Origin: a virus
Taxonomy: Duplodnaviria > Caudoviricetes
Direction: 5' to 3' (one strand)
IMG/VR virus record: IMGVR_UViG_3300035208_008180
Length of the DNA: 64,000 bases
Shown here: piece after piece, positions 2,741 through 49,402 of the stretch
Layout of the letters: every line of letters starts with the position of its first letter
How positions within the stretch are numbered: the stretch's first letter is position 1
Notes under the pieces: model-generated
Databases searched by the model: none
What the model was told of the DNA's origin: nothing
The model's input: the letters and a program-made list of their open reading frames with translations, nothing else
Position numbers and translations under genes: made by a program

Positions 2741-3622
2741 TTATTCCTTCTTATTGTATTTTAAATAGTAATCTAATAGAAATTCGCCACAACTTGCTCC
2801 CACCCCTTTTCCAGGCGGTTCATAATATTCTACCCTTTGACCAAACCGCTCAATAATTTCCATAAATGCCTGCACATGGGGGCTGGCTTTATTATCAATA
2901 GTAGGACGCTCATTGTATTGCAACAACTTTATGGGAATATCTCGGCCAAACAACAACTCACATAATCTACGGGCATCTTGGGGCGAATCATTCACCCCTT
3001 CAATCAAAGTGTAATGAACCTCTACTTTGCTGCCCCTAGTCAATTTCGACATCATCTTCTGATAAAATTCCAAGGCGGCAATGGATGATTCTATTTCTAA
3101 TGCCGCTGGCATCCATTCTTTACGTAATTTATTGTCCGTAAAGTGCAAAGATAGATGGATTTTTACATCTAAATGATAAAGTATGATTCCTTCAACCAAA
3201 TTGAAAAACTTAAACCAATTACGTTTTGGAATAAGAGTGGCAACAGCAAATCGACAAGGGGCATACTTCTTTTTGGCAGAAAGCATCACACTCACAACAC
3301 TATCATTTTCTAATGGTTCGCCACAACCCATAAAAGAAATCAACAACATCCGTCCACCAAGTTTTAAGTCTTGGTGAATAAATTCTATTTGCTCATTCAT
3401 TTCACCCATATCCAAATAATTAACATGCACCTTGCCTTGACAATCCGTTGTATGACAGAATTTACATCCCAGATCACAAGACGTGTGCGTAGATACACAA
3501 ATGATATCTTTGCCAGTATTGTTATCAATATAAGCAACCTCACTTATCAAACCACTTTCCAATTGAAAAACATATTTAATTGTCTTGTCAATTTTGGAAT
3601 GTATTTTGTCAAGTAATTTCAT
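2741..3622 (-). CDS. RlmN/Cfr-family radical SAM RNA methyltransferase-like protein (short N-terminus)
   Basis: CVSTHTSCDLGCKFC (CxxxCxxC), FMGCGEPLEN, LSLH, YTLIEGVND, ASCGE; both RlmN catalytic Cys equivalents present. Confidence 0.8.
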   Translation of the reverse strand: MKLLDKIHSKIDKTIKYVFQLESGLISEVAYIDNNTGKDIICVSTHTSCDLGCKFCHTTDCQGKVHVNYLDMGEMNEQIEFIHQDLKLGGRMLLISFMGCGEPLENDSVVSVMLSAKKKYAPCRFAVATLIPKRNWFKFFNLVEGIILYHLDVKIHLSLHFTDNKLRKEWMPAALEIESSIAALEFYQKMMSKLTRGSKVEVHYTLIEGVNDSPQDARRLCELLFGRDIPIKLLQYNERPTIDNKASPHVQAFMEIIERFGQRVEYYEPPGKGVGASCGEFLLDYYLKYNKKE

Positions 3623-5199
3623 TCTATGGGTTCCCCAGGATCACTTTTGAATTTTTTTTCGGCTTTTAATCTTTTCTTTTCATCAGTAATTTGTTGGAGT
3701 TGACTTCTCTTGTCTGTTGCTTTCTTTTGCAATTCTTCCAAATGCCGAGCAGTCACTTCCTTATTAGCCGACACTTCATTAATTCTCTTATCAAATTCTG
3801 CCTTGCTGATCTCTTGCATTCCTAAAGTACGATCTCTATCCATTTCTATCCAAAACTCAAAACGACATTCTCCAAAACGAGTTTTTACAACTGATACTCT
3901 TGCGACCTTGGCCTCATATTCTACCTTTCGCTGATTCAAACTCCACAAAGCATCTAGGGGACGTGTCTGGCCTTTAGCATCAGCCAAATTATCATCATCG
4001 ATCAATTCTCCCATGTTTACCTTGCTGCGAGAATCTCCCGTAGCCTGCATGGCGGTTAACAAACATACTTTCTCTCGACTGGCAAACCCTTTTAATGCAC
4101 GAATAATTAAAAATCGACTTTCATAGGTTTTCATACCGGCAAAATCTTTCATTTCGCCAATATAATCCACTATCACTAAATCAGGCACAAAACCACGCAT
4201 TTGCAGTTGTTTGTAATAAGCCTGCATCGTGGCCACGTCCATCTCACCGCTGGGAAAGTGTTTGATAACCAGTCGGCGTGGGTCTTCATAATCCTTTGTA
4301 TAATTCTGTAAAGATTGGAATACGATATCCTTGTTGGGAATCAAATTCTTGATACCGATTCCGTATCGATTGCCAGGATCAGCTAATTGGGCGTCAAATC
4401 GTTCAGCAACACGACTTTCATCCAATTCGGTAGAAATATACAAAACCTTCTTGCCACGATGAATGTTGGCAACCGCCGCCTTGATTAAGCAAAGGGATTT
4501 GCCAGAACCAGAGAGCCCAATCCATGACGCTATTTCGCCTCTCTGCATTCCGCCGCCTTGCATGGCGTTATCAATGGACTCAAAGCCGGAAGTGAAAATA
4601 TCACCCTCGGCAATGCTTTTAATCATCTTGTCATAACGCTGTTCATATGTTTGAAAATATTCCTCTCCAATGTCAAAATCCCGATCTACCGACAAAGCAT
4701 CCTGTAGCTTGGTTTGAATGATGCTCCACTTATCCTGGTGATTGTATTTCAATTCATCCATACAACTAAAGAACGCCGCCTTGATTGCTTGTTCTTTAGC
4801 AAAGTCTAATATTCTATCCCTTAAATAATCTCTATCTTCTACACCTGGAACGTAGTGTTCGTAGACATTGTTAATTTCGGCTCGCCAATGCATTTTTACA
4901 TCGGCTGGCTTTTCCTTAATTCTGTCGGCTATGAATTGTTCTATAAACAATCGCTTGGGCAGAACTTTATATTGGTCAAAATACTTAAACAACCAATTGG
5001 CGACTTCTTTGTGAACTTCATTGGTAAAATAAAAAGGCTTTATTAAACCAAAGCTTTGGGTGAGAAACACCGCATCATTTAAAAGAAGAGAAAGAATTGT
5101 GCGTTGAAAATTCTCTTCCCACTGATATTGTACTTCAGCTTGAACATCGGGGTCATCAAACGCCCCCTCCTCATATTTGGAAACATCAATTTCAGGCAT
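3619..5199 (-). CDS. Replicative DNA helicase, DnaB/T4 gp41-like
   Basis: Walker A GLSGSGKS, YISTEL, IVDYIGEM, TAMQ, KTRFG arginine finger. Confidence 0.9.
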   Translation of the reverse strand: MPEIDVSKYEEGAFDDPDVQAEVQYQWEENFQRTILSLLLNDAVFLTQSFGLIKPFYFTNEVHKEVANWLFKYFDQYKVLPKRLFIEQFIADRIKEKPADVKMHWRAEINNVYEHYVPGVEDRDYLRDRILDFAKEQAIKAAFFSCMDELKYNHQDKWSIIQTKLQDALSVDRDFDIGEEYFQTYEQRYDKMIKSIAEGDIFTSGFESIDNAMQGGGMQRGEIASWIGLSGSGKSLCLIKAAVANIHRGKKVLYISTELDESRVAERFDAQLADPGNRYGIGIKNLIPNKDIVFQSLQNYTKDYEDPRRLVIKHFPSGEMDVATMQAYYKQLQMRGFVPDLVIVDYIGEMKDFAGMKTYESRFLIIRALKGFASREKVCLLTAMQATGDSRSKVNMGELIDDDNLADAKGQTRPLDALWSLNQRKVEYEAKVARVSVVKTRFGECRFEFWIEMDRDRTLGMQEISKAEFDKRINEVSANKEVTARHLEELQKKATDKRSQLQQITDEKKRLKAEKKFKSDPGEPIE

Positions 5200-14186: not shown

Positions 14187-14369
14187 TTTTATCAATAAGC
14201 CGCATGATTTGTGCCGCAATCCAAATAGGGATTATAATAATAAACGCAAATATAAGCCCAACAAGACCGCAGGCCAAGTATAACCAAGTGTGCCAGTCAA
14301 ACCAATTCATTTTAGGGTCTGCCATGTAAATATATATTGCATTGCTTGTCATAATAAGCTACAATAAAA

Positions 14370-15824
14370 TTGATGAATCAATTAGTTTTAGAAAATCATT
14401 ATTCCCGTTTAATAACACAAGACGACCACCTAAATCTACTTCTTTGGTCAAAACTAAGATTTAGGGATCGTGACTATTTTCATAGTCGTTTGTATAAACA
14501 AAAGAAGTGGGATGGTTTTCATAATTTTTATTCTAAAGAGACCGGCAAATTCCTGACAGGCATTCTGCCAGAGATACTGTTGGTTATGAATAAATTGAAA
14601 GTCAAATATGAAATCATTGATAATCGTAAGATGATTCAATGGCGAGTGCCCACAATCAATGACCAGTTTCTTAACTATTGGCTCACCGAATACAACGCCA
14701 GTGTCACCACAGAGGAACAACAAAAAGATTATACTTTGCGGGACTTTCAACCAGATGTAGTAAATGGAGTGTTGAAGCATTTTAGGGGATTAGTGGTTGC
14801 TCCTACTGGCACCGGCAAAACAGCCATCTTGATCTCATTAGTTAAATGTCTACCCAAACATTGTCCAACTTTAATTTTGTCAAATCGACGGGGCTTATCT
14901 GACCAACACTATTCGGACTTAAAGAACTGGGGTGTGCCTGATATTGGTAGACTATATGACAAATATAAAGACCCTAATTTTATTACCTGTGCTACTTGGC
15001 AATCAGCGGGCAAATTAGGCAAGTTGTTACCCCAAATTAAAGTTTTGCTTGTTGATGAAATTCACGAAATGATGACGGCAGGCACCCGTAAAATCTACAA
15101 TAAATTAACAGGATGTAGTGTCCGGGTTGGTATATCTGGAACGCCTTTTAAATACGATGGTAAAGACTCCAAACAGAAATGGCTTACCAAAGGATACTTT
15201 GGGCCTCCCATTCAAATAGCTTCTGCCAAAGACGGAAAACTTACGGTCAAAGAAGCTCAACAAAAGGGTATGCTTGTATCATGCAAAGCGGTTTTTTGGC
15301 CCATTCGAGAGCCGATGTTGCCTTATGATATTTACCTCGATGCCGTCACCAGAGGCATTGCTGAAAATTATGATTTTCATCATATTATTGAGAGATTGGT
15401 AAAAACTCTCAAAGGCAGGACGTTGATCCTGGTAGAAAGATTGGCTCATGGAGATATATTAAACAACATAATTCCAGGCTCTTTGTGGGTGCAAGGCAAA
15501 GACAATCTAGAAACTCGTAAACACGTAATTCGTGAATTGATGTTTGCAAAGGAATGTGTGGCGATTGCCACAAGTGGTATATTTTCAGCCGGTATCAATG
15601 TTTTTTGTCACAATTTTTTGAATGCCCAAGGAGGACAAGCAGATCATCAAATTATTCAGAGAATAGGAAGAGGATTGCGTCCTGCTGACGATAAGGATGT
15701 ATTATATTACCATGACTTCTATTTTCACATAAATGAATATCTTGAAGATCATTCTAAAAAAAGAATTAAAATTCTAAAAAAACAAGGGCACGAAGTAATT
15801 ATAAAAGATTCTATAGATTTTTGA
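14370..15824 (+). CDS. SF2 DNA helicase, UvsW-like
   Basis: LRDFQ Q-motif, APTGTGKT, DEIH, SGT, QRIGRGLR. Confidence 0.88.
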   Translation: MMNQLVLENHYSRLITQDDHLNLLLWSKLRFRDRDYFHSRLYKQKKWDGFHNFYSKETGKFLTGILPEILLVMNKLKVKYEIIDNRKMIQWRVPTINDQFLNYWLTEYNASVTTEEQQKDYTLRDFQPDVVNGVLKHFRGLVVAPTGTGKTAILISLVKCLPKHCPTLILSNRRGLSDQHYSDLKNWGVPDIGRLYDKYKDPNFITCATWQSAGKLGKLLPQIKVLLVDEIHEMMTAGTRKIYNKLTGCSVRVGISGTPFKYDGKDSKQKWLTKGYFGPPIQIASAKDGKLTVKEAQQKGMLVSCKAVFWPIREPMLPYDIYLDAVTRGIAENYDFHHIIERLVKTLKGRTLILVERLAHGDILNNIIPGSLWVQGKDNLETRKHVIRELMFAKECVAIATSGIFSAGINVFCHNFLNAQGGQADHQIIQRIGRGLRPADDKDVLYYHDFYFHINEYLEDHSKKRIKILKKQGHEVIIKDSIDF

Positions 15825-39309: not shown

Positions 39310-39311
39310 AG

Positions 39312-39401
39312 CGGAGACTAAAGGAATCGAACCTTCACCGGGGTTTAAGCCGGGCTTGTTTTCGAAACAAGTGCGACAAAGCCAATATTCGCCTAATCTC
39401 C
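39312..39401 (-). tRNA. tRNA-Ser(CGA)
   Basis: Cloverleaf, CTTGT-TTCGAAA-ACAAG, long variable arm, G73. Confidence 0.9.
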
Positions 39402-39839
39402 ATTTTTTGTCAATTCGTTCCAAGAACCAATTCTTTTCCAATGAACACTGCCTTTGGAAAGTTTATTGAAAAACGCCTGTGTTATACAAACCTCACAATT
39501 TTGTATAAACATCTCTCCTTCTTCTGCTTTTAAAGGATCGTTCCATCTATTTCCATCAAACAGAGCTATTAGAACAAAAGTCTCACTGGCCACCTGTGCC
39601 AGTATCCAATAGCCATGTTCATTATGAAATATATCACCACTTTTATACATCATTGGTGGTAATCTACAGAGCGTTGGTTTGCCCAAGGGAATTTCAGCAC
39701 AGGGATTTTGCACTTTGGATCGAACCTTTGGTTCCAATGGAATTTCACTGTAATAGTCCCAATTACGATTCTGTCCATATTGTTCTTCCAACCACTTATT
39801 ATAGCATTCTTCGTCTTCAATGTATGGATTGGAATACAT
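39393..39839 (-). CDS. Hypothetical protein
   Basis: 148-aa ORF. Confidence 0.6.
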   Translation of the reverse strand: MYSNPYIEDEECYNKWLEEQYGQNRNWDYYSEIPLEPKVRSKVQNPCAEIPLGKPTLCRLPPMMYKSGDIFHNEHGYWILAQVASETFVLIALFDGNRWNDPLKAEEGEMFIQNCEVCITQAFFNKLSKGSVHWKRIGSWNELTKNGD

Positions 39840-39841
39840 GC

Positions 39842-40405
39842 TTATTTTTTCACAAATGAGAAACCAGCAAGGTCTTCATTTTGGCTTTCTCTGTCTTGGT
39901 CGAAACCATGAAAAAGATGATCCAATATTGCTTTGCTGTCTACCAATCCACAATGCTTGTAATGTACCACTTTCTCTCCACCATGTCGCACCACAACAAT
40001 TATTGCTTTGATTCTAATGAGCCAATCTACCACATGCTTATAAAGCAATGCATCCATTCCCTTATCTGTCATTTCTTCTATTGTTAGTAATTCGTATTCC
40101 TTATAATAACCACGAGGGGTTATGATAAAACCACAACGATCAGGACGGAGGTTGGCTGCTAATTTCTTGTTTCGTAGCCATGTGCATTTATAATCTCTGC
40201 ACAACTGGGGACGGGTTTCATAACAATCACAACCCCCACCCTCTCTTATGTATGCACACATTGCTTTTGCAGGTTTGTCCCCTTGTTCAAAAAGAAAACA
40301 ACAGGCATAACAATCACCACAACTATGTGGACGATCTCGAAATAATTGCTGCTTTTTATTCCGCTCAGCAGCTTTCTTTTTCTTTTTTTCTAGCTTTTTA
40401 TTCAT
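39842..40405 (-). CDS. YkgJ-like Cys-cluster (CxxCxxCC) protein
   Basis: CGDCYACC...C..YETRPQLCRDY.C; start moved out of the tRNA. Confidence 0.7.
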   Translation of the reverse strand: MNKKLEKKKKKAAERNKKQQLFRDRPHSCGDCYACCFLFEQGDKPAKAMCAYIREGGGCDCYETRPQLCRDYKCTWLRNKKLAANLRPDRCGFIITPRGYYKEYELLTIEEMTDKGMDALLYKHVVDWLIRIKAIIVVVRHGGEKVVHYKHCGLVDSKAILDHLFHGFDQDRESQNEDLAGFSFVKK

Positions 40406-40407
40406 AG

Positions 40408-40490
40408 TGCCCAGGACAGGAGTCGAACCTGCACGGGATTGCTCCCGCCAGCCCCTCAAGCTGGTGCGGCTGCCATTTCGCCACCTGGGC
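40408..40490 (-). tRNA. tRNA-Leu(GAG), long variable arm
   Basis: CCAGC-TTGAGGG-GCTGG; GTTCGAC T-loop. Confidence 0.92.
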
Positions 40491-41111
40491 TTACAAATGT
40501 TGCTTATCTATCCAACCCCTGCTTTTTCTTCCTTTGCCACGATTTCTTCCAGCGAAGGTAGGCAATTGCATATCGCAGTTACCACAAACCAACCTTACAT
40601 TTTCTAATCTATGGTCTTCGGGATCGCCGTTGATGTGATCCAAAATAAGCGGGATAGGTTTTCCCATCCATTCGCTATTATTGCAGATTTCACATTGCCT
40701 TCCTCTAGTTTCAGCTAAATACTTTTTCGCCATGCTCGGATTATATCCGTAACCACAATTGGTTGGCAACAAAGCATTACTACTCTCGATCAATTCCTTC
40801 TTTTTCTTCCATTTCGATTCATTATTGCAGGCGTAGGAACAGTATTTTTTGTTCGTGGTTAAAGAGCCACAATTTAAACACTTGCAAAGTACCGGGCTTT
40901 GGGTGTTCCTCGCCACTCCTTTGTTGTTGAAGCTTGCCGAACAGCCACTACTACAGAAGTCATTCCTTCTTTTCTCATACGCTATTGTGAGTCCACAATT
41001 TTTACATAATTTAGGCTTCAGCAAGTACCGATCAAGGCATCTTTTGTGCTTTTCTCGCTGATAATGTCTGTTTTTTAATCCGCCTAATCTTCCACATTCG
41101 CTTTTATTCAT
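40491..41111 (-). CDS. HNH homing endonuclease
   Basis: CEIC...LDHINGD...NVRLVCGNCD; abuts a tRNA. Confidence 0.8.
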   Translation of the reverse strand: MNKSECGRLGGLKNRHYQREKHKRCLDRYLLKPKLCKNCGLTIAYEKRRNDFCSSGCSASFNNKGVARNTQSPVLCKCLNCGSLTTNKKYCSYACNNESKWKKKKELIESSNALLPTNCGYGYNPSMAKKYLAETRGRQCEICNNSEWMGKPIPLILDHINGDPEDHRLENVRLVCGNCDMQLPTFAGRNRGKGRKSRGWIDKQHL

Positions 41112-41191
41112 TGCTACCTCTGTTTCTTGAAAATAATTATAAGATTATATAGTAATCCTACATTCATTTTTCGAGAAACAAATTTGGCAAG

Positions 41192-41263
41192 AGCTACTTA
41201 TTGGAATTACACCAATGCCTTCGCATTACGAGTGCGATATACTGCTGACTATACGAAAGTAGC
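41192..41263 (-). tRNA. tRNA-Thr(CGT), atypical T-loop
   Basis: GCTACTT/AAGTAGC acceptor; TCGCA-CTCGTAA-TGCGA; T-loop TGTAATT. Confidence 0.8.
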
Positions 41264-41268
41264 ATAAG

Positions 41269-41354
41269 CGGAAGGTGTGGGAGTCGAACCCACAAGGCTT
41301 TTTACACTCGTCCGCTTTCCAAGCGGGTGCCGTCGCCAATCGGCTAGACCTTCC
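41269..41354 (-). tRNA. tRNA-Ser(GGA)
   Basis: CCGC-TTGGAAA-GCGG; long variable arm; G73. Confidence 0.9.
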
Positions 41355-41661
41355 TTTTAAACAACTCTGGATTTTCTGCTACAATGCGTTTTGTTTCTTC
41401 GTGACGCAACCGCCAATCCTCTTCTTCCTGGGCCATATCACGAATCAACTGCCCAGTAGCCAGAAATTTGTCCACACAATCATCACAGATGCCGAAAATA
41501 AATCGTTCTAAATCATGTCTCGACCCATAGCCAGCCATGAAACCATCCACGTTAGCATCATCCCAGCAACTGCTTTGCGGCGTGCCATCCGACGTTTCGG
41601 GGTAGGGTTGCAATTGCTTGCAACAGCCTATACAGAGGATTTTAACATCTTTTGCCTTCAT
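41344..41661 (-). CDS. Hypothetical Zn-binding protein
   Basis: CIGC...ICDDC; start at MKAKD. Confidence 0.6.
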   Translation of the reverse strand: MKAKDVKILCIGCCKQLQPYPETSDGTPQSSCWDDANVDGFMAGYGSRHDLERFIFGICDDCVDKFLATGQLIRDMAQEEEDWRLRHEETKRIVAENPELFKRKV

Positions 41662-41673
41662 TACAATCTCCAG

Positions 41674-41756
41674 CGGAAGCGACAGGATTCGAACCTGCAA
41701 CCCGTCTTAGGGGCAACGGTTTTCAAGACCGCCCGCTAACCATTCGCCTCGCTTCC
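41674..41756 (-). tRNA. tRNA-Ser(TGA)
   Basis: GCGGT-CTTGAAA-ACCGT; G73. Confidence 0.9.
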
Positions 41757-42022
41757 TAATGAGCCTCAAATCCCTTCTTCTCAATATCCTGTTTAATTTG
41801 TTCTATTACCTTAGTTCTGTTCACATAAGATTGGATCACGTATTGTCTGCCACTTGATGTAGTCAATTCGTTTGTTTCCTCATCAAAAACTTTAGGTGTA
41901 GAAACAAACACCGATTTTCCATCTTCAAAATTAGGATGCCCATAGACTTGCCCAGATAGCCTCCAAACATCCATCCCACAACCTAATTCCATTTCGTATT
42001 TTGCATTTTCTAATATAACCAT
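41756..42022 (-). CDS. Hypothetical phage protein
   Basis: LSGQVYGHPNFEDG...TSSGRQY. Confidence 0.7.
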   Translation of the reverse strand: MVILENAKYEMELGCGMDVWRLSGQVYGHPNFEDGKSVFVSTPKVFDEETNELTTSSGRQYVIQSYVNRTKVIEQIKQDIEKKGFEAH

Positions 42023-42447
42023 TAAAAATTTCCTTCTGTCATGGCTTTGACAAATGCTTTTGCCATCACCATCCCGCCAGTTGTGGGAACAAATCTCGCA
42101 ATTGGTGAATAAAAATCAGGATTGTTGGAAAAATGTGGATCAATACTACCTTGTGCCAATAAATCCGCCACTGTTCCCTCAGCATAGACCAAGATTTTTA
42201 CACCCTCAAAGTTTGTGCAATCAGGATATTTAATCCTGACAATCAAAAATTCTCCAATTTGTTCCGAATATAAAATCTCAAAATTCTTTGGATTAGGATT
42301 CGGAAATTTCTTTTTTGCCTTCCTCCTCCCCTGTGTTTGCACCTGACAAGTCTCTGGTGATTGCTGCTGGTTACAATTGCAATATACAACCGTTGGCTTA
42401 TCGTATGAAGAAGAACTGCCACCAAAACCAAGTCCCATGATTAGCAT
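42022..42447 (-). CDS. Hypothetical phage protein
   Basis: PNPNP.NF, YPDCTNFEG.KILVY, IDPHF. Confidence 0.7.
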   Translation of the reverse strand: MLIMGLGFGGSSSSYDKPTVVYCNCNQQQSPETCQVQTQGRRKAKKKFPNPNPKNFEILYSEQIGEFLIVRIKYPDCTNFEGVKILVYAEGTVADLLAQGSIDPHFSNNPDFYSPIARFVPTTGGMVMAKAFVKAMTEGNF

Positions 42448-43865
42448 GCCTCCTTTTGTAATTTAGCATCCCTGCGAGCTTTCTTTAATCTATTCGAACA
42501 ACTTACAGAGCAGGTTTCGTGAGTTGCTTTGCGTTTGGTGTACACTTTTTTACACACCAAACAACGAGCCGTTTTTTTTGCCACTGAAGCTTTGAAACAT
42601 TCTTGGCTGCAAAATCTTGATTGGGCTTTTGTTCTTGCATGAAACTTTTGACGACAAAATTCACAACAGTAAATTGGCCACGATTGTTTTCGACATTCTT
42701 CACTGCAATACTTGGCACCATTTGATTGTTTGGAAAGAATCTTAAATATATTGCCACAAATTTTGCATTTCTTTTTTGTCAAAAGTCCTTTTGCCGATGC
42801 CTCTACATTCTCTTTCTTTAACTGTTGGATTTTATAATAATCAGTGTTCCAACACTTTTTACTGCAATACATTTGTGTGGCATAATTTACGCCAAATTCT
42901 TTTTTGCAACAAATGCAAATTCTTTTGTTTTTTCCACGTTTTCTGTGTTTTTCTGCCCACCAAGCATTACAACATTTTTTTGAGCAAAATAATGAAATAT
43001 AGGATTTTGGCTTAAATATATTCCCACAATTCTTGCAGGGACGTGGATTCAGCAGTTCTGGGAACTTTCGCCTCACCAAGCTTTTGCATTTTACACTACA
43101 ATATATCTTTCTAGAGGTTGGTACATCAAACACGTTTCCACAAATACATATCCTGCGTTGCTCTAGCCACCGCAACACTTTTTTCAAACGTATGCGAATT
43201 GCTTCTTTGGTTAGTCCTAATTCATCGCCTATCTCTTTAAGGGTCATTCTGCGACCCTTCAAACCGTAATATCGAAAAAGGACATCTCTGTATTTTTTAG
43301 GTATTTGTTTACGACGCACTAAAGACAACACTTCGTCAACCTGTTTTGCAACTTCGCTTTGTTGTCCTCTGTTAATATTATCAATTGGCTCTAAGGTTTT
43401 GTCTTCTTCAATACAACAACTAAAAGACCCAACAGTTTTTACTTTATTTATTTGTTGAAGAAGGGCTTCGTCTTTTGAAGATATTTCTTCTTTATCTTGA
43501 GATAGCCGAAATGCTCTTTTGTTTGCCCATTGCGGGATATAAATAATTTTTTTCTGAGCACGGGCATCATTTATAGCATGTTCAACCGCTGTGCTGACAT
43601 AAGTTGACAGCTTTGCTGTGATTCCATCCCAATGATCTACAGCACGACATATGGCTATGCTGGCTTCTGTTAAAAACTCATCATCTATTTCTTTGCCCTT
43701 ACAGGCGTCTCTTACTTTGCTAAACGCTAGACGCAAACAAGATTCGATGAGCTTGTGTCTTGCTTCTTGGTTGCCTGCCTTTGCTTTTGGAAGCAATTCC
43801 AAACACTCTTGATGACTTAGTATTTTGACATGTTTTAAATCATTTAAATAAGCATCAATATCCAC
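42441..43865 (-). CDS. Sigma70-family RNA polymerase sigma factor fused to six CxxC..CSxxC Zn-binding repeats
   Basis: YLND...LS..E, ARHKLIESCLRL, RAVDHWD...LSTY, MTLKEIGDELGLTKEAIR; GTG start at 43865. Confidence 0.85.
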   Translation of the reverse strand: MDIDAYLNDLKHVKILSHQECLELLPKAKAGNQEARHKLIESCLRLAFSKVRDACKGKEIDDEFLTEASIAICRAVDHWDGITAKLSTYVSTAVEHAINDARAQKKIIYIPQWANKRAFRLSQDKEEISSKDEALLQQINKVKTVGSFSCCIEEDKTLEPIDNINRGQQSEVAKQVDEVLSLVRRKQIPKKYRDVLFRYYGLKGRRMTLKEIGDELGLTKEAIRIRLKKVLRWLEQRRICICGNVFDVPTSRKIYCSVKCKSLVRRKFPELLNPRPCKNCGNIFKPKSYISLFCSKKCCNAWWAEKHRKRGKNKRICICCKKEFGVNYATQMYCSKKCWNTDYYKIQQLKKENVEASAKGLLTKKKCKICGNIFKILSKQSNGAKYCSEECRKQSWPIYCCEFCRQKFHARTKAQSRFCSQECFKASVAKKTARCLVCKKVYTKRKATHETCSVSCSNRLKKARRDAKLQKEAC

Positions 43866-43900
43866 AATAAACTTCCTTGTGTTTGTATCATCTTGCAGAG

Positions 43901-43976
43901 TAGCACCAGGGGGATTCGAACCCACCACTACCCAGTGTTTAAAACTGGTGACTTCTGCCAATTGGTCTATGGTGCC
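43901..43976 (-). tRNA. tRNA-Leu(TAA), short variable region
   Basis: CCAGT-TTTAAAC-ACTGG; 76 nt; A73. Confidence 0.85.
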
Positions 43977-43981
43977 ATGAG

Positions 43982-44055
43982 TAGCGAGGAGGGGATTCGA
44001 ACCCCTACTGTCTGGTTCCTAAGACCAGTGCCGCTGCCAATTGGGCTACCTCGCC
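43982..44055 (-). tRNA. tRNA-Leu(TAG), short variable region
   Basis: CTGGT-CTTAGGA-ACCAG; variable region ACAGT. Confidence 0.88.
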
Positions 44056-44057
44056 AT

Positions 44058-44375
44058 TTATGATTGTTCTATATCCTGAACATCAACTCTTTTCCTAAGT
44101 TCTTTGAAAATTTCGTGTGCAGCTTCTTTTCCAGTTGTTGCAGCATCAAGCTTCTTTATCAATTCTGTTGTGCCTAATTTCCACACAGCATATTCTTCAT
44201 CGGTTTCACAGAGTATTAAATTCAGTTTACCAAACCGAACTACAGTCGAATGAGGATTGTCAGACAACCTTCGTAACGATTGTGCTGTTCCTGTGTTGAC
44301 TCGGATAACAAGGTCTACATCTGAGTTTGCGTTTGGCTTGCCGTAAGCTCTACTGCCCGTAATAAATGCGTTCAT
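44058..44375 (-). CDS. Minimal nucleotidyltransferase (MNT, pol-beta superfamily)
   Basis: ITGSRAYG.....SDVDL. Confidence 0.8.
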   Translation of the reverse strand: MNAFITGSRAYGKPNANSDVDLVIRVNTGTAQSLRRLSDNPHSTVVRFGKLNLILCETDEEYAVWKLGTTELIKKLDAATTGKEAAHEIFKELRKRVDVQDIEQS

Positions 44376-44650
44376 TTTTTTACCTTGTCATCGTTCACTG
44401 GCCAATGCTTTCTGCCTTCTGAAACATGCTCTAATGCTTCTCGGATTATTTCAGGTGATTCCTCAATCTCAACAAAAGCCCACCCTGGCGGGCAATTGCC
44501 TACATTTTTCTTGGGAGATACCATCACCCCCAAGTGTTCGCCACAAGTTGCTAGCCCGCCACCAATCGATTTGAGAAATTCCGCATAACTGAGATTATCT
44601 GGAACTTCCAAATCATTCCCATGTTCATCCTTGCGACCAATGACTTTCAT
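44372..44650 (-). CDS. Hypothetical protein
   Basis: GGAG Shine-Dalgarno site + MKVIG start. Confidence 0.6.
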   Translation of the reverse strand: MKVIGRKDEHGNDLEVPDNLSYAEFLKSIGGGLATCGEHLGVMVSPKKNVGNCPPGWAFVEIEESPEIIREALEHVSEGRKHWPVNDDKVKK

Positions 44651-44662
44651 TTTTTCTCCAAG

Positions 44663-44748
44663 CGGAAACGGAGGGAGTCGAACCCCCAAGGCTTTTTACA
44701 CTCATCTGTTTTCAGAACAGGTTTCGTCACCAATCGATTTGCGTTTCC
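44663..44748 (-). tRNA. tRNA-Ser(TGA), atypical (C33)
   Basis: Ser-type body similar to Ser(GGA); loop TCTGAAA. Confidence 0.75.
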
Positions 44749-44753
44749 GAAAG

Positions 44754-44827
44754 TAGCACCAGAAGGATTCGAACCTTCACTGAACAGTGTTTGAAACTGT
44801 TGCCGCTGCCAATTGGGCTATGGTGCC
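44754..44827 (-). tRNA. tRNA-Leu(CAA), short variable region
   Basis: ACAGT-TTCAAAC-ACTGT; variable region TCAGT. Confidence 0.88.
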
Positions 44828-44832
44828 ATAAG

Positions 44833-44906
44833 TAGCATCGGTGGGATTCGAACCCACAACCTCTACATTTTGAGTGTAGCGACTCTGCCAGTTGGTCTAC
44901 GATGCC
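44833..44906 (-). tRNA. tRNA-Leu(CAA), short variable region
   Basis: CTACA-CTCAAAA-TGTAG; variable region AGGTT. Confidence 0.88.
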
Positions 44907-44912
44907 AAAATA

Positions 44913-45608
44913 TCAAACAACCCCTAGTTGTGTCAGGATTGTCGCATGTTGCTCAGTCATGGTTGTCAGTTGTGTATTGAGGGATGCAAGTGATGCTTCC
45001 AAATCCGACTTCTCTGCCAGTATTACAGCATGCTGTTCTGTCAAGACTGCTAATTGTGCATTTAAAGATTCAAGAGATGCTTCCAAATCTGCTTTTTCTA
45101 TCAACAGTTCTTCCGCTGGTGTTTCTCCACTTGCATCAATGCCCGCATTTACAACCACCAGTCTTTCAGTCTTTGTTAGTATGTCAGCATTTATCAGGTC
45201 AATAGATGCTCCACTTGCATCAACGCTCGCACTTACAACTGCCAGTCTTTCAGTATTTGTTTGTATGCCAGGATTTATCGCATTTATTGCGGCAACAAGT
45301 TGTCGCAATTGATATTCTAATGAAAACAGTAATGCCATGCCCCCAACAACTTGAGCAGCTAAAGGGTGAGTATAAACCAATTCCCAAATATTATCAAAAA
45401 ATTCAACTTTGTCCTGATCTGCACCCGGATATAGTTGTTTTGTGGTGTAATTGTAGGGTCTAAAAACAATTGTCAATGGTTGTTTTGTAGCATCAACGTT
45501 TATCGTTTGCACGTTAAATGCCACAATATAAAGCTCGTTATACACAGCCTCAACAGTGGCAGGAACTATTAGTGGGCTTGGATTAGGAATCAGAGGTAAA
45601 TCAGCCAT
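44913..45608 (-). CDS. Hypothetical protein with internally duplicated coiled coil
   Basis: TERL.VV.A..DASG x2; EK.DLEASL.SLN.QL...TEQHA.IL x2. Confidence 0.7.
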   Translation of the reverse strand: MADLPLIPNPSPLIVPATVEAVYNELYIVAFNVQTINVDATKQPLTIVFRPYNYTTKQLYPGADQDKVEFFDNIWELVYTHPLAAQVVGGMALLFSLEYQLRQLVAAINAINPGIQTNTERLAVVSASVDASGASIDLINADILTKTERLVVVNAGIDASGETPAEELLIEKADLEASLESLNAQLAVLTEQHAVILAEKSDLEASLASLNTQLTTMTEQHATILTQLGVV

Positions 45609-45622
45609 ATTTTTTCCTTTGT

Positions 45623-45844
45623 TTAATTCAAATGTACTGTACCACGACCTTTGGTGGTTCTTACGATTTTTGTTATACCATCTTTTTCAACTTTTACAAT
45701 ACGAAGTGGATCACTTGGATACAAAGAGTCAAATGCGTCTACATAACCATCGCAATAAGCTCTTGTTTTATGCTCTATAAAAGATACTTTACGCCATCCA
45801 AGATCGCCACTGTTTCTCTCTACGTAATACATTTTTTTCTCCAA
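45623..45844 (-). CDS. Hypothetical protein
   Basis: ORF between tRNAs. Confidence 0.55.
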   Translation of the reverse strand: MEKKMYYVERNSGDLGWRKVSFIEHKTRAYCDGYVDAFDSLYPSDPLRIVKVEKDGITKIVRTTKGRGTVHLN

Positions 45845-45845
45845 G

Positions 45846-45920
45846 TGCCACGAGCGAGATTCGAACTCGCACTGTCTAGTATCTCGGACTAGCGACTCCT
45901 ACCAATTGGTCTACCGTGGC
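45846..45920 (-). tRNA. tRNA-Leu(GAG), short variable region, C33
   Basis: CTAGT-CCGAGAT-ACTAG. Confidence 0.8.
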
Positions 45921-46104
45921 GTACATCACATATAATGATCTTGATCTTTTTCTCGCCAATATTCATCCTCTTTTTGCCGATACTCAGCATACTCTGCGTT
46001 TGTATAGTATTGATACGATCCACAGGCACACGGATTACAATTACATATTCTGCATACTGCTGCATTATCTATATCATTCATTATTATTTCTCGGGTGTGT
46101 AAAG

Positions 46105-46178
46105 TAGCGAGGAGGGGATTCGAACCCCTACTGGATAGTTCCTGAAACTATTGCCGCTGCCAATTGGGCTACCTCGCC
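46105..46178 (-). tRNA. tRNA-Leu(CAG), short variable region
   Basis: ATAGT-TTCAGGA-ACTAT; body nearly identical to Leu(TAG) at 43982. Confidence 0.88.
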
Positions 46179-46184
46179 ATAAAG

Positions 46185-46262
46185 TGGCTGTGGCGGGTCT
46201 CGAAGCCGCAAAACATCACAAAGTTCTGGACTTTGCCGCTTTTCCGATTTGCGTACACAGCC
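46185..46262 (-). tRNA. Atypical tRNA, anticodon CAG (Leu), possibly degenerate
   Basis: GGCTGTG/CACAGCC acceptor; CAAAG-TCCAGAA-CTTTG; T-stem mismatch. Confidence 0.6.
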
Positions 46263-46267
46263 ATAAG

Positions 46268-46350
46268 TGCCCAAGGAGGGACTTGAACCCTCAAGAGATT
46301 TCTCTCGCCAGATTTTGAGTCTGGTGCGGTTGCCATTTCGCCACCTGGGC
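46268..46350 (-). tRNA. tRNA-Leu(CAA), long variable arm
   Basis: CCAGA-CTCAAAA-TCTGG. Confidence 0.92.
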
Positions 46351-46355
46351 ATAAG

Positions 46356-46427
46356 TGGAGCAGGTGGGTATCGCACCCACGTCTACAGCTTTTCAGACTG
46401 TCACTAATCTACCTCAGTTACTGCTCC
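46356..46427 (-). tRNA. tRNA-Phe(GAA), atypical T-loop
   Basis: ACAGT-CTGAAAA-GCTGT; T-loop TGCGATA. Confidence 0.8.
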
Positions 46428-46432
46428 ATAAG

Positions 46433-46505
46433 TGGTAGGGGTCGGAGTCGAACCGACACTTCCACGTTTTCAGCGTGGCACTCAGACCAGCTAAGTTACC
46501 CTACC
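46433..46505 (-). tRNA. tRNA-Phe(GAA)
   Basis: CCACG-CTGAAAA-CGTGG. Confidence 0.9.
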
Positions 46506-46956
46506 TCATTCCATCATGTATTTCTCTATGACAATTACTACAAACAAGCACACATTTTTTTACTTCTTCGATAAGTTTGTCCCAACGTGCTAACATTCCT
46601 TTGCTGGAAAATCCAAAACTTTTTTCTTGTTTTTCATCCATGTTTTTGTGATGAAACTCAAGAGCCTTCATACAACGATTATACCCACATTCTGAACAAG
46701 CACCGCCACACATTTTGACTAATTCAATCTTTCTGTTCTTTCTGGCTTTTCTTTGCCATTTTTTATATTTTTCATTATCACGCTTTCTTTTTTCTTCAGT
46801 TGTTAGCGGGATATGTTGAATTTCTAGTTTTTTTGTGTTGCCACAACCAAAAGGCGAACATTCAAGGCAATATTTGCGATTGTGCAGGTTTCTTATTTTT
46901 CCATCTATTTTAAGTTTTGATGGGAACTTTTTTTTACATAATTTACATAATGGCAT
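46501..46956 (-). CDS. HNH endonuclease
   Basis: CSECGY...LEFHH...KCVLVCSNCHREIH. Confidence 0.8.
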   Translation of the reverse strand: MPLCKLCKKKFPSKLKIDGKIRNLHNRKYCLECSPFGCGNTKKLEIQHIPLTTEEKRKRDNEKYKKWQRKARKNRKIELVKMCGGACSECGYNRCMKALEFHHKNMDEKQEKSFGFSSKGMLARWDKLIEEVKKCVLVCSNCHREIHDGMR

Positions 46957-47030
46957 AGTTTTTCTCCTATGCTATTATGTAGTAAAGTAGTATCAAAAAA
47001 TCCAACTTTTTTAGGCTACTTTTTCCTCAG

Positions 47031-47123
47031 TGGGAAGTGACGGAATCGAACCGCTCAAAGTCATACCACCCCAAATTCTTTAACGACTAACAGATTTACA
47101 GTCTGCCTTGGGGAACACCTCCC
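47031..47123 (-). tRNA. D-armless tRNA-Tyr(GTA)-like RNA with extended variable arm
   Basis: GGGAGGT/ACTTCCC-A acceptor, GCAGA-CTGTAAA-TCTGT, TTCGATT T-loop; only 10 nt in place of the D-arm. Confidence 0.75.
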
Positions 47124-47127
47124 ATTT

Positions 47128-47284
47128 TGGTTCTCAGTGTGTTATTACACCAAAGGCAAGAGCGACAATACACACTCTTTGCGACACCCAGTATTGTTCT
47201 TTCCAGGTGATTGCTTTTCGCCACGCAGCTAACGCTACCACTCTTTAAATGCTGGACACTCCTAATCCCACATCCTGAGAACCA
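47128..47284 (-). ncRNA. Unknown structured RNA inside the tRNA array
   Basis: Terminal inverted repeat TTGGTTCTCAG/CTGAGAACCAA; spaced like a tRNA between two tRNA-Tyr genes. Confidence 0.55.
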
Positions 47285-47286
47285 AG

Positions 47287-47368
47287 TGTGCCGAGCCGGA
47301 ATTGAACCGACAAGTCCCGAAGGAGTCTCGTTTACAGCGAGGTGGGCCTGCCAATGCCCAATCGACAC
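47287..47368 (-). tRNA. tRNA-Tyr(GTA)
   Basis: CTCG-CTGTAAA-CGAG; variable arm TCC-TTCG-GGA. Confidence 0.88.
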
Positions 47369-47370
47369 AT

Positions 47371-47733
47371 TTATTTTTCTTTCAAGTAACCTTTTTCCTG
47401 TGCGTGTTTGTCACATAGGGTTTTAACCCAACCATTTTTGTTCGTGTGCCTACATCCTTGTTCACCACAAACTTCGCAAATATGATATGAATCTCTTTCT
47501 GCCTGTTCAATTAAATTTAGAACAGAATGAACATCCCCGCCACCAGTGTCAATTGAGTAGTAGAACCTAAGTCCTCCAAATTTTTCTTTTATTTGCAGAA
47601 CTTTTAAATCCACCTTATTGGCACGAATCGCCGTAAACAATCGATCTACAAGATCATTCCAACCTTCCGCTATGGCAATTTCCACATAGCCTGTTGCTGG
47701 GAAAAACTCAGGATATTTTTCCTTGAAATTCAT
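47371..47733 (-). CDS. Conserved hypothetical phage protein
   Basis: QIKEKFGGLRFY...ICEVCG...TLC. Confidence 0.7.
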   Translation of the reverse strand: MNFKEKYPEFFPATGYVEIAIAEGWNDLVDRLFTAIRANKVDLKVLQIKEKFGGLRFYYSIDTGGGDVHSVLNLIEQAERDSYHICEVCGEQGCRHTNKNGWVKTLCDKHAQEKGYLKEK

Positions 47734-48044
47734 TTCTTTTTACCAAAAATTTTCTTGTGGGCTTGCATGTATTTGTTTGTTCTCTCTGCCCAATCTTTTA
47801 TGATTGCTTCAATTTTATTTTGTGAAACCCTTGTTCCAATCAACGCATCCGTTCCCTTGTATTGGCCAGCATAACGATGGTGTTTCGTAAGCATATTTGC
47901 TAGTTCATCTGCCAAAAGTGTAGCATCATCCAAATCCTCTCTACAACCAGCCGCCTCTATTTTACCATTAGTATGAACCGCATAAGCATAATAAAGTGGC
48001 GGGCATTGTTTATCAACATACACTTGTGGGTTCCAACGGGGCAT
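47730..48044 (-). CDS. Hypothetical protein
   Basis: 104-aa ORF. Confidence 0.6.
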   Translation of the reverse strand: MPRWNPQVYVDKQCPPLYYAYAVHTNGKIEAAGCREDLDDATLLADELANMLTKHHRYAGQYKGTDALIGTRVSQNKIEAIIKDWAERTNKYMQAHKKIFGKKK

Positions 48045-48047
48045 TTT

Positions 48048-48365
48048 CTATTCCTGTATTTGCTTGATAACCATGAAATGTTGTTTTTTGCCGATTCGAA
48101 TTATTCCCCATCCTGGCCAAATGAATTTAACCAGCGATTCAGGATCGGTTACTTTTTCGCCATTCCAAGACAAAGAACCTTCTTTAACTTTGCGTCTAAC
48201 TTCACTGATGCTTGGTAAGGCACCGCCATCAACACAAATCTGTGCTATTTTTCCATCCTGCACTGTTTTAGGACGCATCCACCACCACATGCTGGCAAAT
48301 GTTTCTTGACAAACAGCCTTGGGCTTGTTTAGTATTTCCCATAATTCATCAAATGTCAACATCAT
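48048..48365 (-). CDS. Stand-alone S4-like RNA-binding protein resembling the TyrRS C-terminal domain
   Basis: PSISEVRRKVKEGSLSWNGEKVTD...IIRIGKKQHF. Confidence 0.75.
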   Translation of the reverse strand: MMLTFDELWEILNKPKAVCQETFASMWWWMRPKTVQDGKIAQICVDGGALPSISEVRRKVKEGSLSWNGEKVTDPESLVKFIWPGWGIIRIGKKQHFMVIKQIQE

Positions 48366-48379
48366 AATTTCTCCAAAAG

Positions 48380-48468
48380 CGGAAGTGACTAGAATCGAAC
48401 TAGCACTGGCTTTGACACCAGAACGGTTTAGCAAACCGCCGCAACAAACCAATATTTGCCTCACTTCC
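48380..48468 (-). tRNA. tRNA-Ser(GCT)
   Basis: GCGGT-TTGCTAA-ACCGT; G73. Confidence 0.9.
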
Positions 48469-48482
48469 GAAGGCGTTTTTCA

Positions 48483-48495
48483 ATTGTCAAAGAAC
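48483..48495 (-). promoter_or_regulatory. boxA-like antitermination element
   Basis: GTTCTTTGACAAT right after the first tRNA of the locus. Confidence 0.45.
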
Positions 48496-48503
48496 TCTCA
48501 CAG

Positions 48504-48587
48504 TGGTCTCGGCGGGAGTCGAACCCGCACGGGCATTACACCCAGGAGATTTTAAGTCTCCATTGTCTACCATTCCAACACGAGACC
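48504..48587 (-). tRNA. tRNA-Leu(TAA), long variable arm
   Basis: GGAGA-CTTAAAA-TCTCC. Confidence 0.92.
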
Positions 48588-48613: not shown

Positions 48614-49084
48614 TTATCCATTTTTTATTTTTGCCCAGTTTACAAACTGTTCAAAGACCCATTGCATGGTGCCTTTGCTCACAAGTTCTGTTTGTTTACC
48701 CTCATCAGTTTGCCTAAATTCCTCCACATCTTTTTCCAACCTTTCAAGATAATCTTTTTTCATTCCTTCCAACATCATTGGCAGCACAATTTCATCCATC
48801 ATCAAGCCACCAGGGCTTTCATCCCATTCGACTTTATCCATTGGAACGCCGATTTTTTCCAAAAAGGCTTCCATATCAAAGTTATCCATCCATGTTTCGC
48901 CGCCAATCATTTCATCATTACTGCGAATCGTCCAGGCATCTTCCTCAGCCCAAGACATACCCATTTCTTTTCCAATAATTGCGTGGTCTGCAATCTTGCC
49001 TATTTGATCTTCGGACAAATATTTTTTTAGGATAGCGAAGCTTGAGCTTGAGCTATTGGACACAAATGTAGTTCTTATTTTCAT
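48614..49084 (-). CDS. FVSNSS-family protein 6; first gene after the attenuator
   Basis: MKIRTTFVSNSSSSSF; GAGGTG Shine-Dalgarno site. Confidence 0.8.
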   Translation of the reverse strand: MKIRTTFVSNSSSSSFAILKKYLSEDQIGKIADHAIIGKEMGMSWAEEDAWTIRSNDEMIGGETWMDNFDMEAFLEKIGVPMDKVEWDESPGGLMMDEIVLPMMLEGMKKDYLERLEKDVEEFRQTDEGKQTELVSKGTMQWVFEQFVNWAKIKNG

Positions 49085-49124: not shown

Positions 49125-49160
49125 AAAAAAAGCCCGCTGACGGTTGACCGCCAGCGGGCT
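49125..49160 (-). terminator. Intrinsic terminator of the putative attenuator
   Basis: AGCCCGCTGGCGG-TCAA-CCGTCAGCGGGCT-TTTTTT. Confidence 0.9.
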
Positions 49161-49178: not shown

Positions 49179-49259
49179 TCAGCCCAGGGCGGTCCATACG
49201 CTCGTAAATAAATACGAGAGTGACAAGAGACTGCTCAGACTGGAATAGGACTTTTTCAT
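49179..49259 (-). CDS. Putative attenuator leader peptide MKKSYSSLSSLLSLSYLFTSVWTALG
   Basis: 26 codons; codons 4-20 are all Ser/Leu/Tyr/Phe/Thr; 3' end GACCGCCCTGGGCT is complementary to the terminator 5' arm. Confidence 0.85.
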   Translation of the reverse strand: MKKSYSSLSSLLSLSYLFTSVWTALG

Positions 49260-49310: not shown

Positions 49311-49339
49311 ATTATACTTCAGTTTTTTTGAATTGTAAA
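49311..49339 (-). promoter_or_regulatory. Sigma70-type promoter of the leader/tRNA locus
   Basis: TTTACA-N17-TATAAT. Confidence 0.75.
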
Positions 49340-49351
49340 GAGGGAAAACAG

Positions 49352-49391
49352 AAAAATTTCACCCGCCCCCATTTATAGGGGGCAGATGAAA
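49352..49391 (-). terminator. Terminator-like hairpin insulating the tRNA-locus promoter
   Basis: TTTCATCTGCCCCC...GGGGGCGGGTGAAA followed by a T-run on the minus strand. Confidence 0.55.
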
Positions 49392-49402
49392 TCAGATCGG
49401 TA

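Follow-up and report, generated by a model that had tools for sequence, protein, structure and literature searches.

A codon-matched leader and terminator precede a five-amino-acid tRNA array in a huge phage: a candidate leader-peptide attenuator

Multivalent leader-peptide attenuators control enterobacterial operons such as ilvGMEDA (Ile/Leu/Val) and thr (Thr/Ile), and the pheST leader controls a synthetase. Here we describe array C, a tRNA gene array on the minus strand of a 64,000-nucleotide window (bases 192001-256000 of contig C200, G000; IMG/VR record IMGVR_UViG_3300035208_008180, a virus of the Caudoviricetes), which is probably the cargo of a multivalent leader-peptide attenuator reporting decoding speed. 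As in the enterobacterial systems, a promoter, an open reading frame (ORF) of regulatory codons, an intrinsic terminator and a predicted, mutually exclusive antiterminator overlapping the leader end are combined, and one leader addresses more than one amino acid. Array C differs from them in being viral and in that regulation would act on the tRNAs themselves instead of on biosynthetic enzymes or a synthetase. The leaders also differ in composition: enterobacterial leaders repeat one or two amino acids in long runs, whereas here up to 11 anticodon species for five amino acids are sampled, mostly by 1-4 codons each.

T-box riboswitches likewise couple genes of translation supply to the state of specific tRNAs. 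Unlike the arrangement at array C, a T-box binds one uncharged tRNA directly, without translation, and controls synthetase or amino-acid genes; an Rfam scan of the array region found no T-box. The control proposed here, leader-peptide attenuation, is of a known kind; its use for tRNA arrays headed by a leader that names many isoacceptors (a roster) appears to be undescribed, and our literature search found no paper on leader-peptide control of tRNA genes.

What tRNAs do for the phages that carry them, and how they are deployed, has been a matter of debate for about 50 years (PMC10264068). Array C resembles the arrays of T4, T5, Felix O1-like and huge phages (PMC7162821) in its dense, co-oriented tRNA genes with interleaved homing endonucleases and small ORFs, and in the presence of a transfer-messenger RNA (tmRNA) and a CCA-adding enzyme on the genome. 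Up to 67 tRNAs have been reported in huge phages (PMC7162821), and the 64 array tRNAs of C200 (42 anticodons, 20/20 amino acids, plus tmRNA) come near that maximum. Unlike the mixed arrays of Erwinia phage phiEa21-4 and IMG/VR contig L006, these 42 anticodons are cleanly split over three leader-matched arrays.

Partition of the tRNA genes and the codons of the leaders

With default settings, ARAGORN called 17 tRNA genes, which lie within 39311-48587 on the minus strand of the window (positions are those of the window unless a contig or locus is named). A relaxed threshold added Thr-CGU (41191-41263) and a second Ser-UGA (44662-44748), yielding 19 canonical genes: 10 Leu, 5 Ser, 2 Phe, 1 Tyr and 1 Thr-CGU, together with one D-armless RNA with a Tyr anticodon. 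An initial annotation, made from the letters of the window, had counted 20 tRNAs; its 10 Leu, 5 Ser, 2 Phe and 1 Thr stand, and of its two Tyr one is canonical and the other (about 47031-47123) lacks the D hairpin, reaches 24.6 bits on the tRNA-Sec model and is not a canonical tRNA. On the Rfam tRNA model (cut-off 29), 18/19 canonical genes score 38.8-66.4 bits. The exception, Ser-UGA at 44662, matches the tRNA-Sec model alone with 38.1 bits, below the 47-bit cut-off of that model, and its call rests on ARAGORN.

Two further arrays on C200 are co-oriented with array C. Array A (C200:13-38 kb) encodes Thr, Arg, Gly, Glu, Val, Asn, Asp, Ala, Pro and Ile-UAU, and array B (C200:70.6-76 kb) encodes two Met followed by Ile-GAU, Lys, Gln, Cys, Trp and His. 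No anticodon is common to two arrays and 0/20 multi-copy anticodons are split. Ile and Thr are the only amino acids present in two arrays, each with unlike anticodons. When the 64 tRNAs were shuffled over the arrays, 14 amino acids were split on average and at least 7 in each of 100,000 shuffles, as compared to 2 observed. The five-amino-acid restriction of array C far exceeds chance. The module organised by amino acid that the initial annotation described is borne out by this permutation test, in fact at the level of the anticodon. The sister modules it anticipated were also found: the other amino acids lie in arrays A and B, each with its own codon-matched leader ORF and terminator, and a contig-wide tRNA scan revealed three leader-headed arrays instead of scattered, leaderless tRNAs.

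The leader of array C is a 26-codon ORF on the minus strand (49179-49259; MKKSYSSLSSLLSLSYLFTSVWTALG, then the stop codon), identified by reading the sequence and by a codon-by-anticodon matrix. It starts with the ATG at 49259 and has AAGG..GAG upstream. All 17 codons from 4 to 20 (SYSSLSSLLSLSYLFTS) are decodable by array C tRNAs, and the leader samples 11/12 of the anticodon types in the array; its sole Thr codon is ACG, which fits the lone Thr-CGU. Leader A (MMSNFFGTTRRPAPEGTTIPTVAVRPEVEDNTAI) contains 28 successive residues drawn from the ten amino acids of array A and uses ACA and ACC (array A: Thr-UGU and Thr-GGU) as well as ATA (Ile-UAU). Leader B (MSKQQKQQKQKWQHCCITGDLF) names Lys, Gln, Trp, His, Cys and Ile and is placed after the two Met tRNA genes, and the gene closer to the leader is initiator-like. 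The longest runs of codons decodable by arrays A, B and C are 18, 1 and 2 for leader A, 3, 15 and 2 for leader B, and 1, 2 and 17 for leader C. Among the 4,212 ATG ORFs of 15-45 codons on C200, each leader is the best non-repeat ORF for its own array. There is one leader ORF per array and no more; further leaders were searched for within all three arrays and none was found. We took a hairpin at 44493-44478, which is located within an ORF, as a chance occurrence.

Arrays A, B and C each lie downstream of a promoter, a short leader ORF and a terminator/antiterminator. Upstream of array C the order is an insulating terminator, the promoter, the leader ORF, a strong terminator, a 156-residue ORF and the first tRNA, all on the minus strand. 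The insulating terminator of the preceding unit (49355-49393), identified by a terminator scan, is a hairpin with a T-run, consisting of a 16-pair stem and then TTTCTGTTTT. The promoter (49311-49339) is of the sigma-70 type, TTTACA-17-TATAAT, and is the best promoter match of the region (11/12). It carries the motif CTGAAGTATAAT, which is also found in the array A promoter and at sites on contigs C226 and C242. The intrinsic terminator (49125-49160), located by minimum free energy (MFE) folding, has 12 G/C-rich pairs extended by A-U pairs, followed by T7. Its stem has an MFE of about -25 kcal/mol, and the whole leader region has a z of -4.8 relative to shuffled controls. The final codons of the leader and its stop codon complement the 5' arm of this terminator. 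A predicted antiterminator segment (49181-49194, GACCGCC-CT-GGGCT), identified by RNA folding, lies within these final codons, and when the RNA is folded without the terminator 3' arm, GACCGCC..GGGCT is predicted to pair with AGCCC..GGCGGTC. The region contains the parts of a leader-peptide attenuator, namely a promoter, an ORF with a ribosome-binding site, clustered regulatory codons, an intrinsic terminator and a predicted antiterminator.

Relatives, analogues and a proposed mechanism

Relatives were reached through a cluster search with the 156-residue protein combined with contig look-up, and through a profile scan. An IMG/VR search with the post-leader protein and the DnaB helicase returned nothing, a search for the exact 21-nucleotide leader pattern in metagenome contigs returned nothing, and a search of INPHARED gave tRNA-level matches alone. 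In L037 and L038, where the homologue of the 156-residue protein has 77% identity, the leader and terminator are almost identical to those of array C, and the array starts with Leu-UAA, Ser-GCU, Tyr, a Tyr-like RNA, Phe, Phe and Leu-GAG. In L039-L042 (50% identity), the leader MGNFSYSLSSLLSLSYLFTSKIAAGW keeps the S/Y/L/F/T run with five synonymous changes. Four pairs of the L039 terminator are altered on both sides, so that the changes are compensatory, and the L039 antiterminator is re-paired with other letters (AGATC..GGCT with AGCC..GATCT). Downstream in L039-L042 are Leu-UAA, Ser-GCU, Phe, Leu-CAA, Ser-UGA, Ser-GGA and Thr-CGU. The arrays of the relatives contain the same five amino acids, Thr-CGU included. 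The roster and the structure are conserved and the ends of the peptide are variable, and the pattern therefore fits an attenuator, not a functional peptide.

The more distant homologues of the 156-residue protein (L043-L047) lie in other contexts for the most part. The profile scan with its N-terminal domain gave 80 loci (L048-L127), many of which adjoin tRNA arrays. Three huge-phage contigs unrelated to C200 have roster-type leader ORFs with other amino-acid sets. L108, an AT-rich lake contig, has two leaders (L108a and L108b, at 14235-14360 and 15416-15577), ...YRNLYIECINEMNNIDDE... and ...ICDYRNININDEDTM.... These leaders (Y/N/I/E/C/M/D) precede Glu, Tyr, Asp, Cys, Met, Ile, Ile and Asn tRNAs, and the final codons of both complement a terminator arm, the same stop-codon link as in array C. 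The predicted antiterminators of L108a and L108b follow the array C design in other letters. An ORF ending in SLSSYYSYLLLSSLCL at L080:14320-14430 lies ahead of Tyr, Leu, Cys, Ser, Ser, Leu and Leu, and an S/L/T-rich ORF on the reverse strand of L099 (4042-4122) lies ahead of Leu, Ser, Thr-UGU, Ser and Leu. The fit of these distinct rosters to distinct arrays argues for a general principle.

We propose that array C is confined to Leu, Ser, Tyr and Phe plus Thr-CGU because it is the cargo of a codon-matched leader attenuator. The huge phage, whose contig has a length of at least 340 kb, would draw a near-complete decoding set from its three co-oriented operons. In array C, the sigma-70-type promoter would drive the 26-codon leader ORF that names the downstream tRNA species. 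A quick ribosome would reach the stop codon and cover the antiterminator segment, the terminator would form and the array would be off. We infer that scarcity of any sampled aminoacyl-tRNA, which may arise when host tRNAs are degraded, cleaved or out-competed, would cause the ribosome to lag, leading to formation of the antiterminator and allowing RNA polymerase to read into the array. Division of the tRNA set over three leaders would keep each roster short enough for one attenuator. The primary transcript would also bear homing endonucleases, a sigma-like factor and small proteins. The tRNAs would then be cut at the 5' side, probably by RNase P, and at the 3' side at the N73-CU signal, and their ends would be finished by the phage CCA-adding enzyme.

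With a codon-spelled leader the phage would measure decoding speed for each tRNA group and make tRNAs on demand, and leader-peptide attenuation would be extended from amino-acid supply genes to tRNA genes. This reading accounts for anticodon-partitioned arrays, which are otherwise odd. The leader is a testable handle on when phage tRNAs are needed, be it host shut-off, immune tRNA cleavage or codon mismatch, and the leader-array rule may aid the annotation of tRNA operons and the prediction of tRNA conflicts in uncultured huge phages.

Several points weigh against attenuation. Most tRNA species are sampled by one to four leader codons, and sensitivity to the loss of a single species may therefore be low. 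Promoter-like sites inside array C could allow attenuator-independent transcription. Sequence features are the basis for deducing termination, readthrough and an operon that is continuous over 10 kb, and coupling of transcription and translation in the host is assumed. A canonical terminator after the roster ORF was not found in L080 or L099; the RNA mechanism is therefore not uniform across lineages, and these two loci hint at another read-out. Tandem duplication by itself would also tend to hold isoacceptors together. The amino-acid grouping could then be the trace of tandem duplication and anticodon drift, with leaders that are coincidental or regulate the protein genes and with constitutive tRNAs. 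Such an account agrees with same-family tRNAs often being neighbours, some of them with common bodies, with the presence of protein genes including the sigma-like factor within the operon, and with the internal promoter-like sites. We regard it as very improbable, since it leaves unexplained why Leu and Ser share the array with the unrelated Thr-CGU, the two Phe and the Tyr, why the leader names every one of these, why three diagonal leader-array matches occur on one contig, and why the rosters in L108, L080 and L099 differ along with their arrays.

tRNA bodies, redundancy and the nuclease question

Apart from the two genes gained at the relaxed threshold, the canonical genes were identified by both ARAGORN and Rfam. 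The array begins with tRNA-Leu(UAA) (48503-48587, long variable arm of 16 nucleotides), tRNA-Ser(GCU) (48379-48468, long arm, G73) and tRNA-Tyr(GUA) (47286-47368, long arm, A73). Two tRNA-Phe(GAA) genes follow (46432-46505, 66 bits on Rfam, and 46355-46427, a second body with 71% identity to the first), and after them tRNA-Leu(CAA) (46267-46350, long arm of 15 nucleotides), two tRNA-Leu(CAG) genes (46184-46262, with a variable loop of 9 nucleotides and C33, and 46104-46178, short, with a variable loop of 5 nucleotides) and a short tRNA-Leu(GAG) with C33 (45845-45920). The next group contains two short tRNA-Leu(CAA) genes with different bodies (44832-44906 and 44753-44827), the long-arm tRNA-Ser(UGA) found by relaxed ARAGORN (44662-44748), a short tRNA-Leu(UAG) (43981-44055) and a short tRNA-Leu(UAA) (43900-43976, variable loop of 6 nucleotides). 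The array continues with tRNA-Ser(UGA) in a second body (41673-41756), tRNA-Ser(GGA) (41268-41354), tRNA-Thr(CGU) (Rfam 54 bits and relaxed ARAGORN), which is the sole tRNA of the array outside Leu, Ser, Tyr and Phe, and tRNA-Leu(GAG) (40407-40490, long arm of 15 nucleotides), and its final gene is tRNA-Ser(CGA) (39311-39401).

Tandem tRNA genes are spaced by 2-13 nucleotides, most commonly by CTTAT, and several run straight into the GGAG ribosome-binding site of the following ORF. As the initial annotation had noted, encoded CCA is absent from every window tRNA gene and the discriminator base is followed by CT: the N73-C-T ending is found in 19/19 window genes and in 63/64 on C200. Its list of duplicated anticodons also holds for CAA (three copies) and for TAA, GAG, CAG, UGA and GAA (two each); the second GTA body it included is the non-canonical RNA. 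Duplicates with the same anticodon have bodies with just 58-82% identity, and one pair with unlike anticodons, Leu(UAG) at 43981 and Leu(CAG) at 46104, has 91% identity.

In 7/10 Leu genes the variable loop has 5-9 nucleotides, short of the long arm of type II tRNAs (more than 10 nucleotides), and 3/10 have an arm of 15-16 nucleotides; Leu CAA, GAG and UAA each occur in both long- and short-arm form. A73 is present in 10/10 Leu genes, the short ones hold an AAYTGGYAG D-loop, and the variable loop ends in T/U in 6/7. The elements recognised by E. coli leucyl-tRNA synthetase (LeuRS) are A73, A14/A15 with U48, G18G19 and A20a, and the long arm is dispensable (PMC9976931). The genes of the short-arm Leu tRNAs keep such LeuRS identity elements. 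A review states that the long arm of tRNA-Leu is present in all organisms save animal mitochondria (PMC9976931). The class-I-shaped tRNA-Leu of animal mitochondria and minimal E. coli variants (PMC9976931) are likewise Leu acceptors without a long arm and with A73 and D/T-loop elements; unlike these, the short-arm genes of array C are natural genes of a bacterial virus and stand beside long-arm versions with the same anticodons. The Ser and Tyr tRNAs of array C keep long arms. The synthetases for Ser, and for Tyr in bacteria, use the long variable arm. No LeuRS or other class Ia synthetase was found on the phage contig, and the short-arm Leu tRNAs must therefore use the host enzyme. Short Leu genes were also found in the mixed array of an unrelated IMG/VR contig. 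The cultured, Felix O1-like Erwinia phage phiEa21-4 (L139) has short-arm tRNA-Leu genes of 77-78 nucleotides at 3590-3666 and 4127-4204, again in a mixed array. Short-arm Leu tRNAs are therefore not tied to the leader-array system.

The initial annotation had read the redundancy as evasion of tRNA nucleases rather than as compensation of codon bias. This is unproven; because copy number also follows phage codon usage, simple dosage accounts for the redundancy no less well than evasion does. Among the Leu codons of the phage, TTG accounts for 37% (CAA, three copies), TTA for 23% (UAA, two), CTY for 23% (GAG, two), CTG for 9% (CAG, two) and CTA for 8% (UAG, one). It is quite possible, though short of likely, that the redundancy serves gene dosage and that the unlike bodies are old duplicates which drifted with compensatory changes, without any evasion. 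Leu is both the most used amino acid (8.4%) and the one with the most genes, tRNA gene number correlates with amino-acid usage of the phage (Spearman 0.52, p=0.019), and the Leu-UAG/Leu-CAG pair shows duplication followed by a change of anticodon. The correlation for Leu is weak, with five points, and dosage leaves unexplained both the occurrence of one anticodon on long- and short-arm scaffolds and the differences between duplicates at loop positions 32, 33, 37 and 38, with C33 in two Leu tRNAs. These loop differences are in keeping with bet-hedging against host tRNA nucleases or toxins, with the short-arm Leu tRNAs, the altered loops and the D-armless Tyr RNA acting as escape variants or decoys and the leader as a damage sensor. 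Escape of phage tRNAs from anticodon nucleases by loop changes is a published idea (PMC10264068; also PMC11555353, PMC11464382), the arm is lost in Leu alone, the type II tRNA whose synthetase dispenses with it (PMC9976931), and the contig carries an RtcB RNA ligase. We nevertheless find this purpose doubtful: the tRNAs of the metagenome-assembled genome (MAG) in which C200 was binned are uninformative, no type II specificity is seen in the bacterial Schlafen nucleases so far described, and short-arm Leu tRNAs are shared with the mixed arrays of cultured Felix O1-like phages and of the unrelated IMG/VR contig.

Published anti-defence tRNAs of phages include anticodon-loop variants insensitive to host nucleases (PMC10264068), T5 tRNA-Tyr against a retron (PMC11555353) and T5 tRNA-Lys against PARIS (PMC11464382). 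They are phage-encoded stand-ins for tRNAs that the host can destroy, as the tRNAs of array C may be, with their duplicates that vary at loop positions 32, 33, 37 and 38; the published cases are of single tRNAs, whereas here an array would be regulated. The context of tRNA damage, made up of the loop variants, C33, RtcB, the CCA-adding enzyme and an RNase P-like RNA, is circumstantial. A more specific proposal is that array C is a counter-measure against a host attack on type II Leu, Ser and Tyr tRNAs through the variable arm or the anticodon loop, in which arm-less Leu tRNAs, C33 variants, the D-armless Tyr RNA as decoy or substitute and a free TyrRS-like S4 domain shielding tRNA-Tyr would all be triggered by the leader on detection of the slowed decoding. 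We consider this distinctly unlikely; if true, the attenuator would be a viral sensor of host immune tRNA cleavage. Support from type II-specific nucleases was dropped, as two papers on bacterial Schlafen proteins describe anticodon-arm/T-loop cleavage of many tRNAs and the type II preference is that of human SLFN11.

The D-armless RNA (47031-47123, minus strand) was recognised by its weak match to the Sec model and by covariation with L037. It has the Tyr anticodon loop CUGUAAA and ends in A73 followed by CT. Compared with the relative in L037, compensatory changes occur in the acceptor, anticodon and T stems, and the unusual acceptor-proximal pairing CCCCAA:TTGGGG is replaced by CCACAC:GTGTGG; the CUGUAAA loop is unchanged. 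Because the stems and this pairing co-vary, the Tyr-like RNA is real and conserved, a functional RNA though not a canonical tRNA. Together with the short-arm Leu tRNAs it is ready material for studies of synthetase and nuclease recognition. Between tRNA-Tyr and the Tyr-like RNA, comparison with L037 identified a conserved non-coding element of about 160 nucleotides (47124-47285, minus strand) that is closed by GGTTCTCAG/CTGAGAACC. It is almost unchanged in L037 despite the mere 77% identity of the neighbouring protein. An Rfam scan of the element found no match, and it looks like a structured RNA that would be freed by tRNA processing.

Protein genes, tRNA maturation and contig context

The first gene of the operon (48614-49084) encodes the 156-residue protein that has homologues in huge-phage contigs; like the other protein genes of the operon it is on the minus strand. 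Pfam and PHROG searches gave no match for it, and its AlphaFold model (pLDDT 79) has no PDB match at E <= 0.001. Its N-terminal domain, with the motif FVSNSSSSS, recurs by tRNA arrays in many huge-phage contigs. The gene at 48048-48365 encodes a free-standing S4-like domain resembling the C-terminal domain of tyrosyl-tRNA synthetase (PF22421, 29 bits, cut-off 27). This is a tRNA-binding-type domain without a catalytic domain, and it lies 0.7 kb upstream of both Tyr RNAs. HNH homing endonucleases are encoded at 46501-46956 (phrog_2255, E 5e-30) and 40491-41111 (phrog_10822, E 2e-21). A small nucleotidyltransferase-fold protein of 105 residues (44058-44375; PF01909, 23.6 bits) is preceded by an overlapping ORF of 93 residues; the pair (44058-44662, minus strand) lies between Ser-UGA and Leu-UAG and may be a two-gene module. 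The product of the gene at 42441-43898 joins regions 2 and 4 of a sigma-70-like factor to a C-terminal part that resembles an HNH endonuclease (PF04545, PF04542, phrog_351, phrog_1271). If co-transcribed with the tRNAs, this factor would also be under leader control.

Several genes on C200 bear on tRNA maturation, the route of which we infer from them and from the ends of the tRNA genes. A CCA-adding enzyme is encoded at C200:175838-176203 (minus strand; PF01743, 126 bits). A 226-nucleotide RNase P RNA-like sequence lies at C200:34143-34368 (minus strand), between the Asp and Thr genes of array A; it matches RF00010 with 67 bits (E 7e-20), which is below the gathering score, and spans the whole model at a far shorter length. 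The CU that invariably follows N73 is suggestive of a processing signal. This N73-CU rule is common to the close relatives and L065 and not to other huge phages, and would therefore be a lineage-specific 3' processing signature. The RtcB RNA ligase (C200:62452-63558, minus strand, 293 bits) shows only that RNA repair matters to the phage. RNA ligase family genes are also present on the 40% GC contigs C226 and C137.

Contig C200 is 340,072 bp long with a GC content of 40.5%, as compared to about 70% for the other large contigs of its bin. Replication genes of the phage in the window encode a DnaB-like helicase, a DNA polymerase, a helicase and SbcD. The tRNAs of the 70% GC MAG itself are ordinary type II and not close to those of the phage. 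Because the two sets are unrelated, we treat the binning as an error: C200 is a phage contig mis-binned in the MAG, and the bin gives no host evidence. ARAGORN calls at C200:333-335 kb and a Phe(AAA) call at 50.6 kb lie outside the arrays and were not counted as tRNAs. The three calls at C200:333496-334810 (minus strand) have the stem AAACAAT in common and are not ordinary tRNAs. The bin is chimeric. Five of its contigs, C200, C137, C226, C242 and C44, have a GC content of 39-42% in a bin of about 70% and sum to about 760 kb; they may form the genome of a single, very large phage or come from closely related ones. C200, C226 and C242 carry the promoter motif TTTACA-N11-CTGRAGTATAAT.

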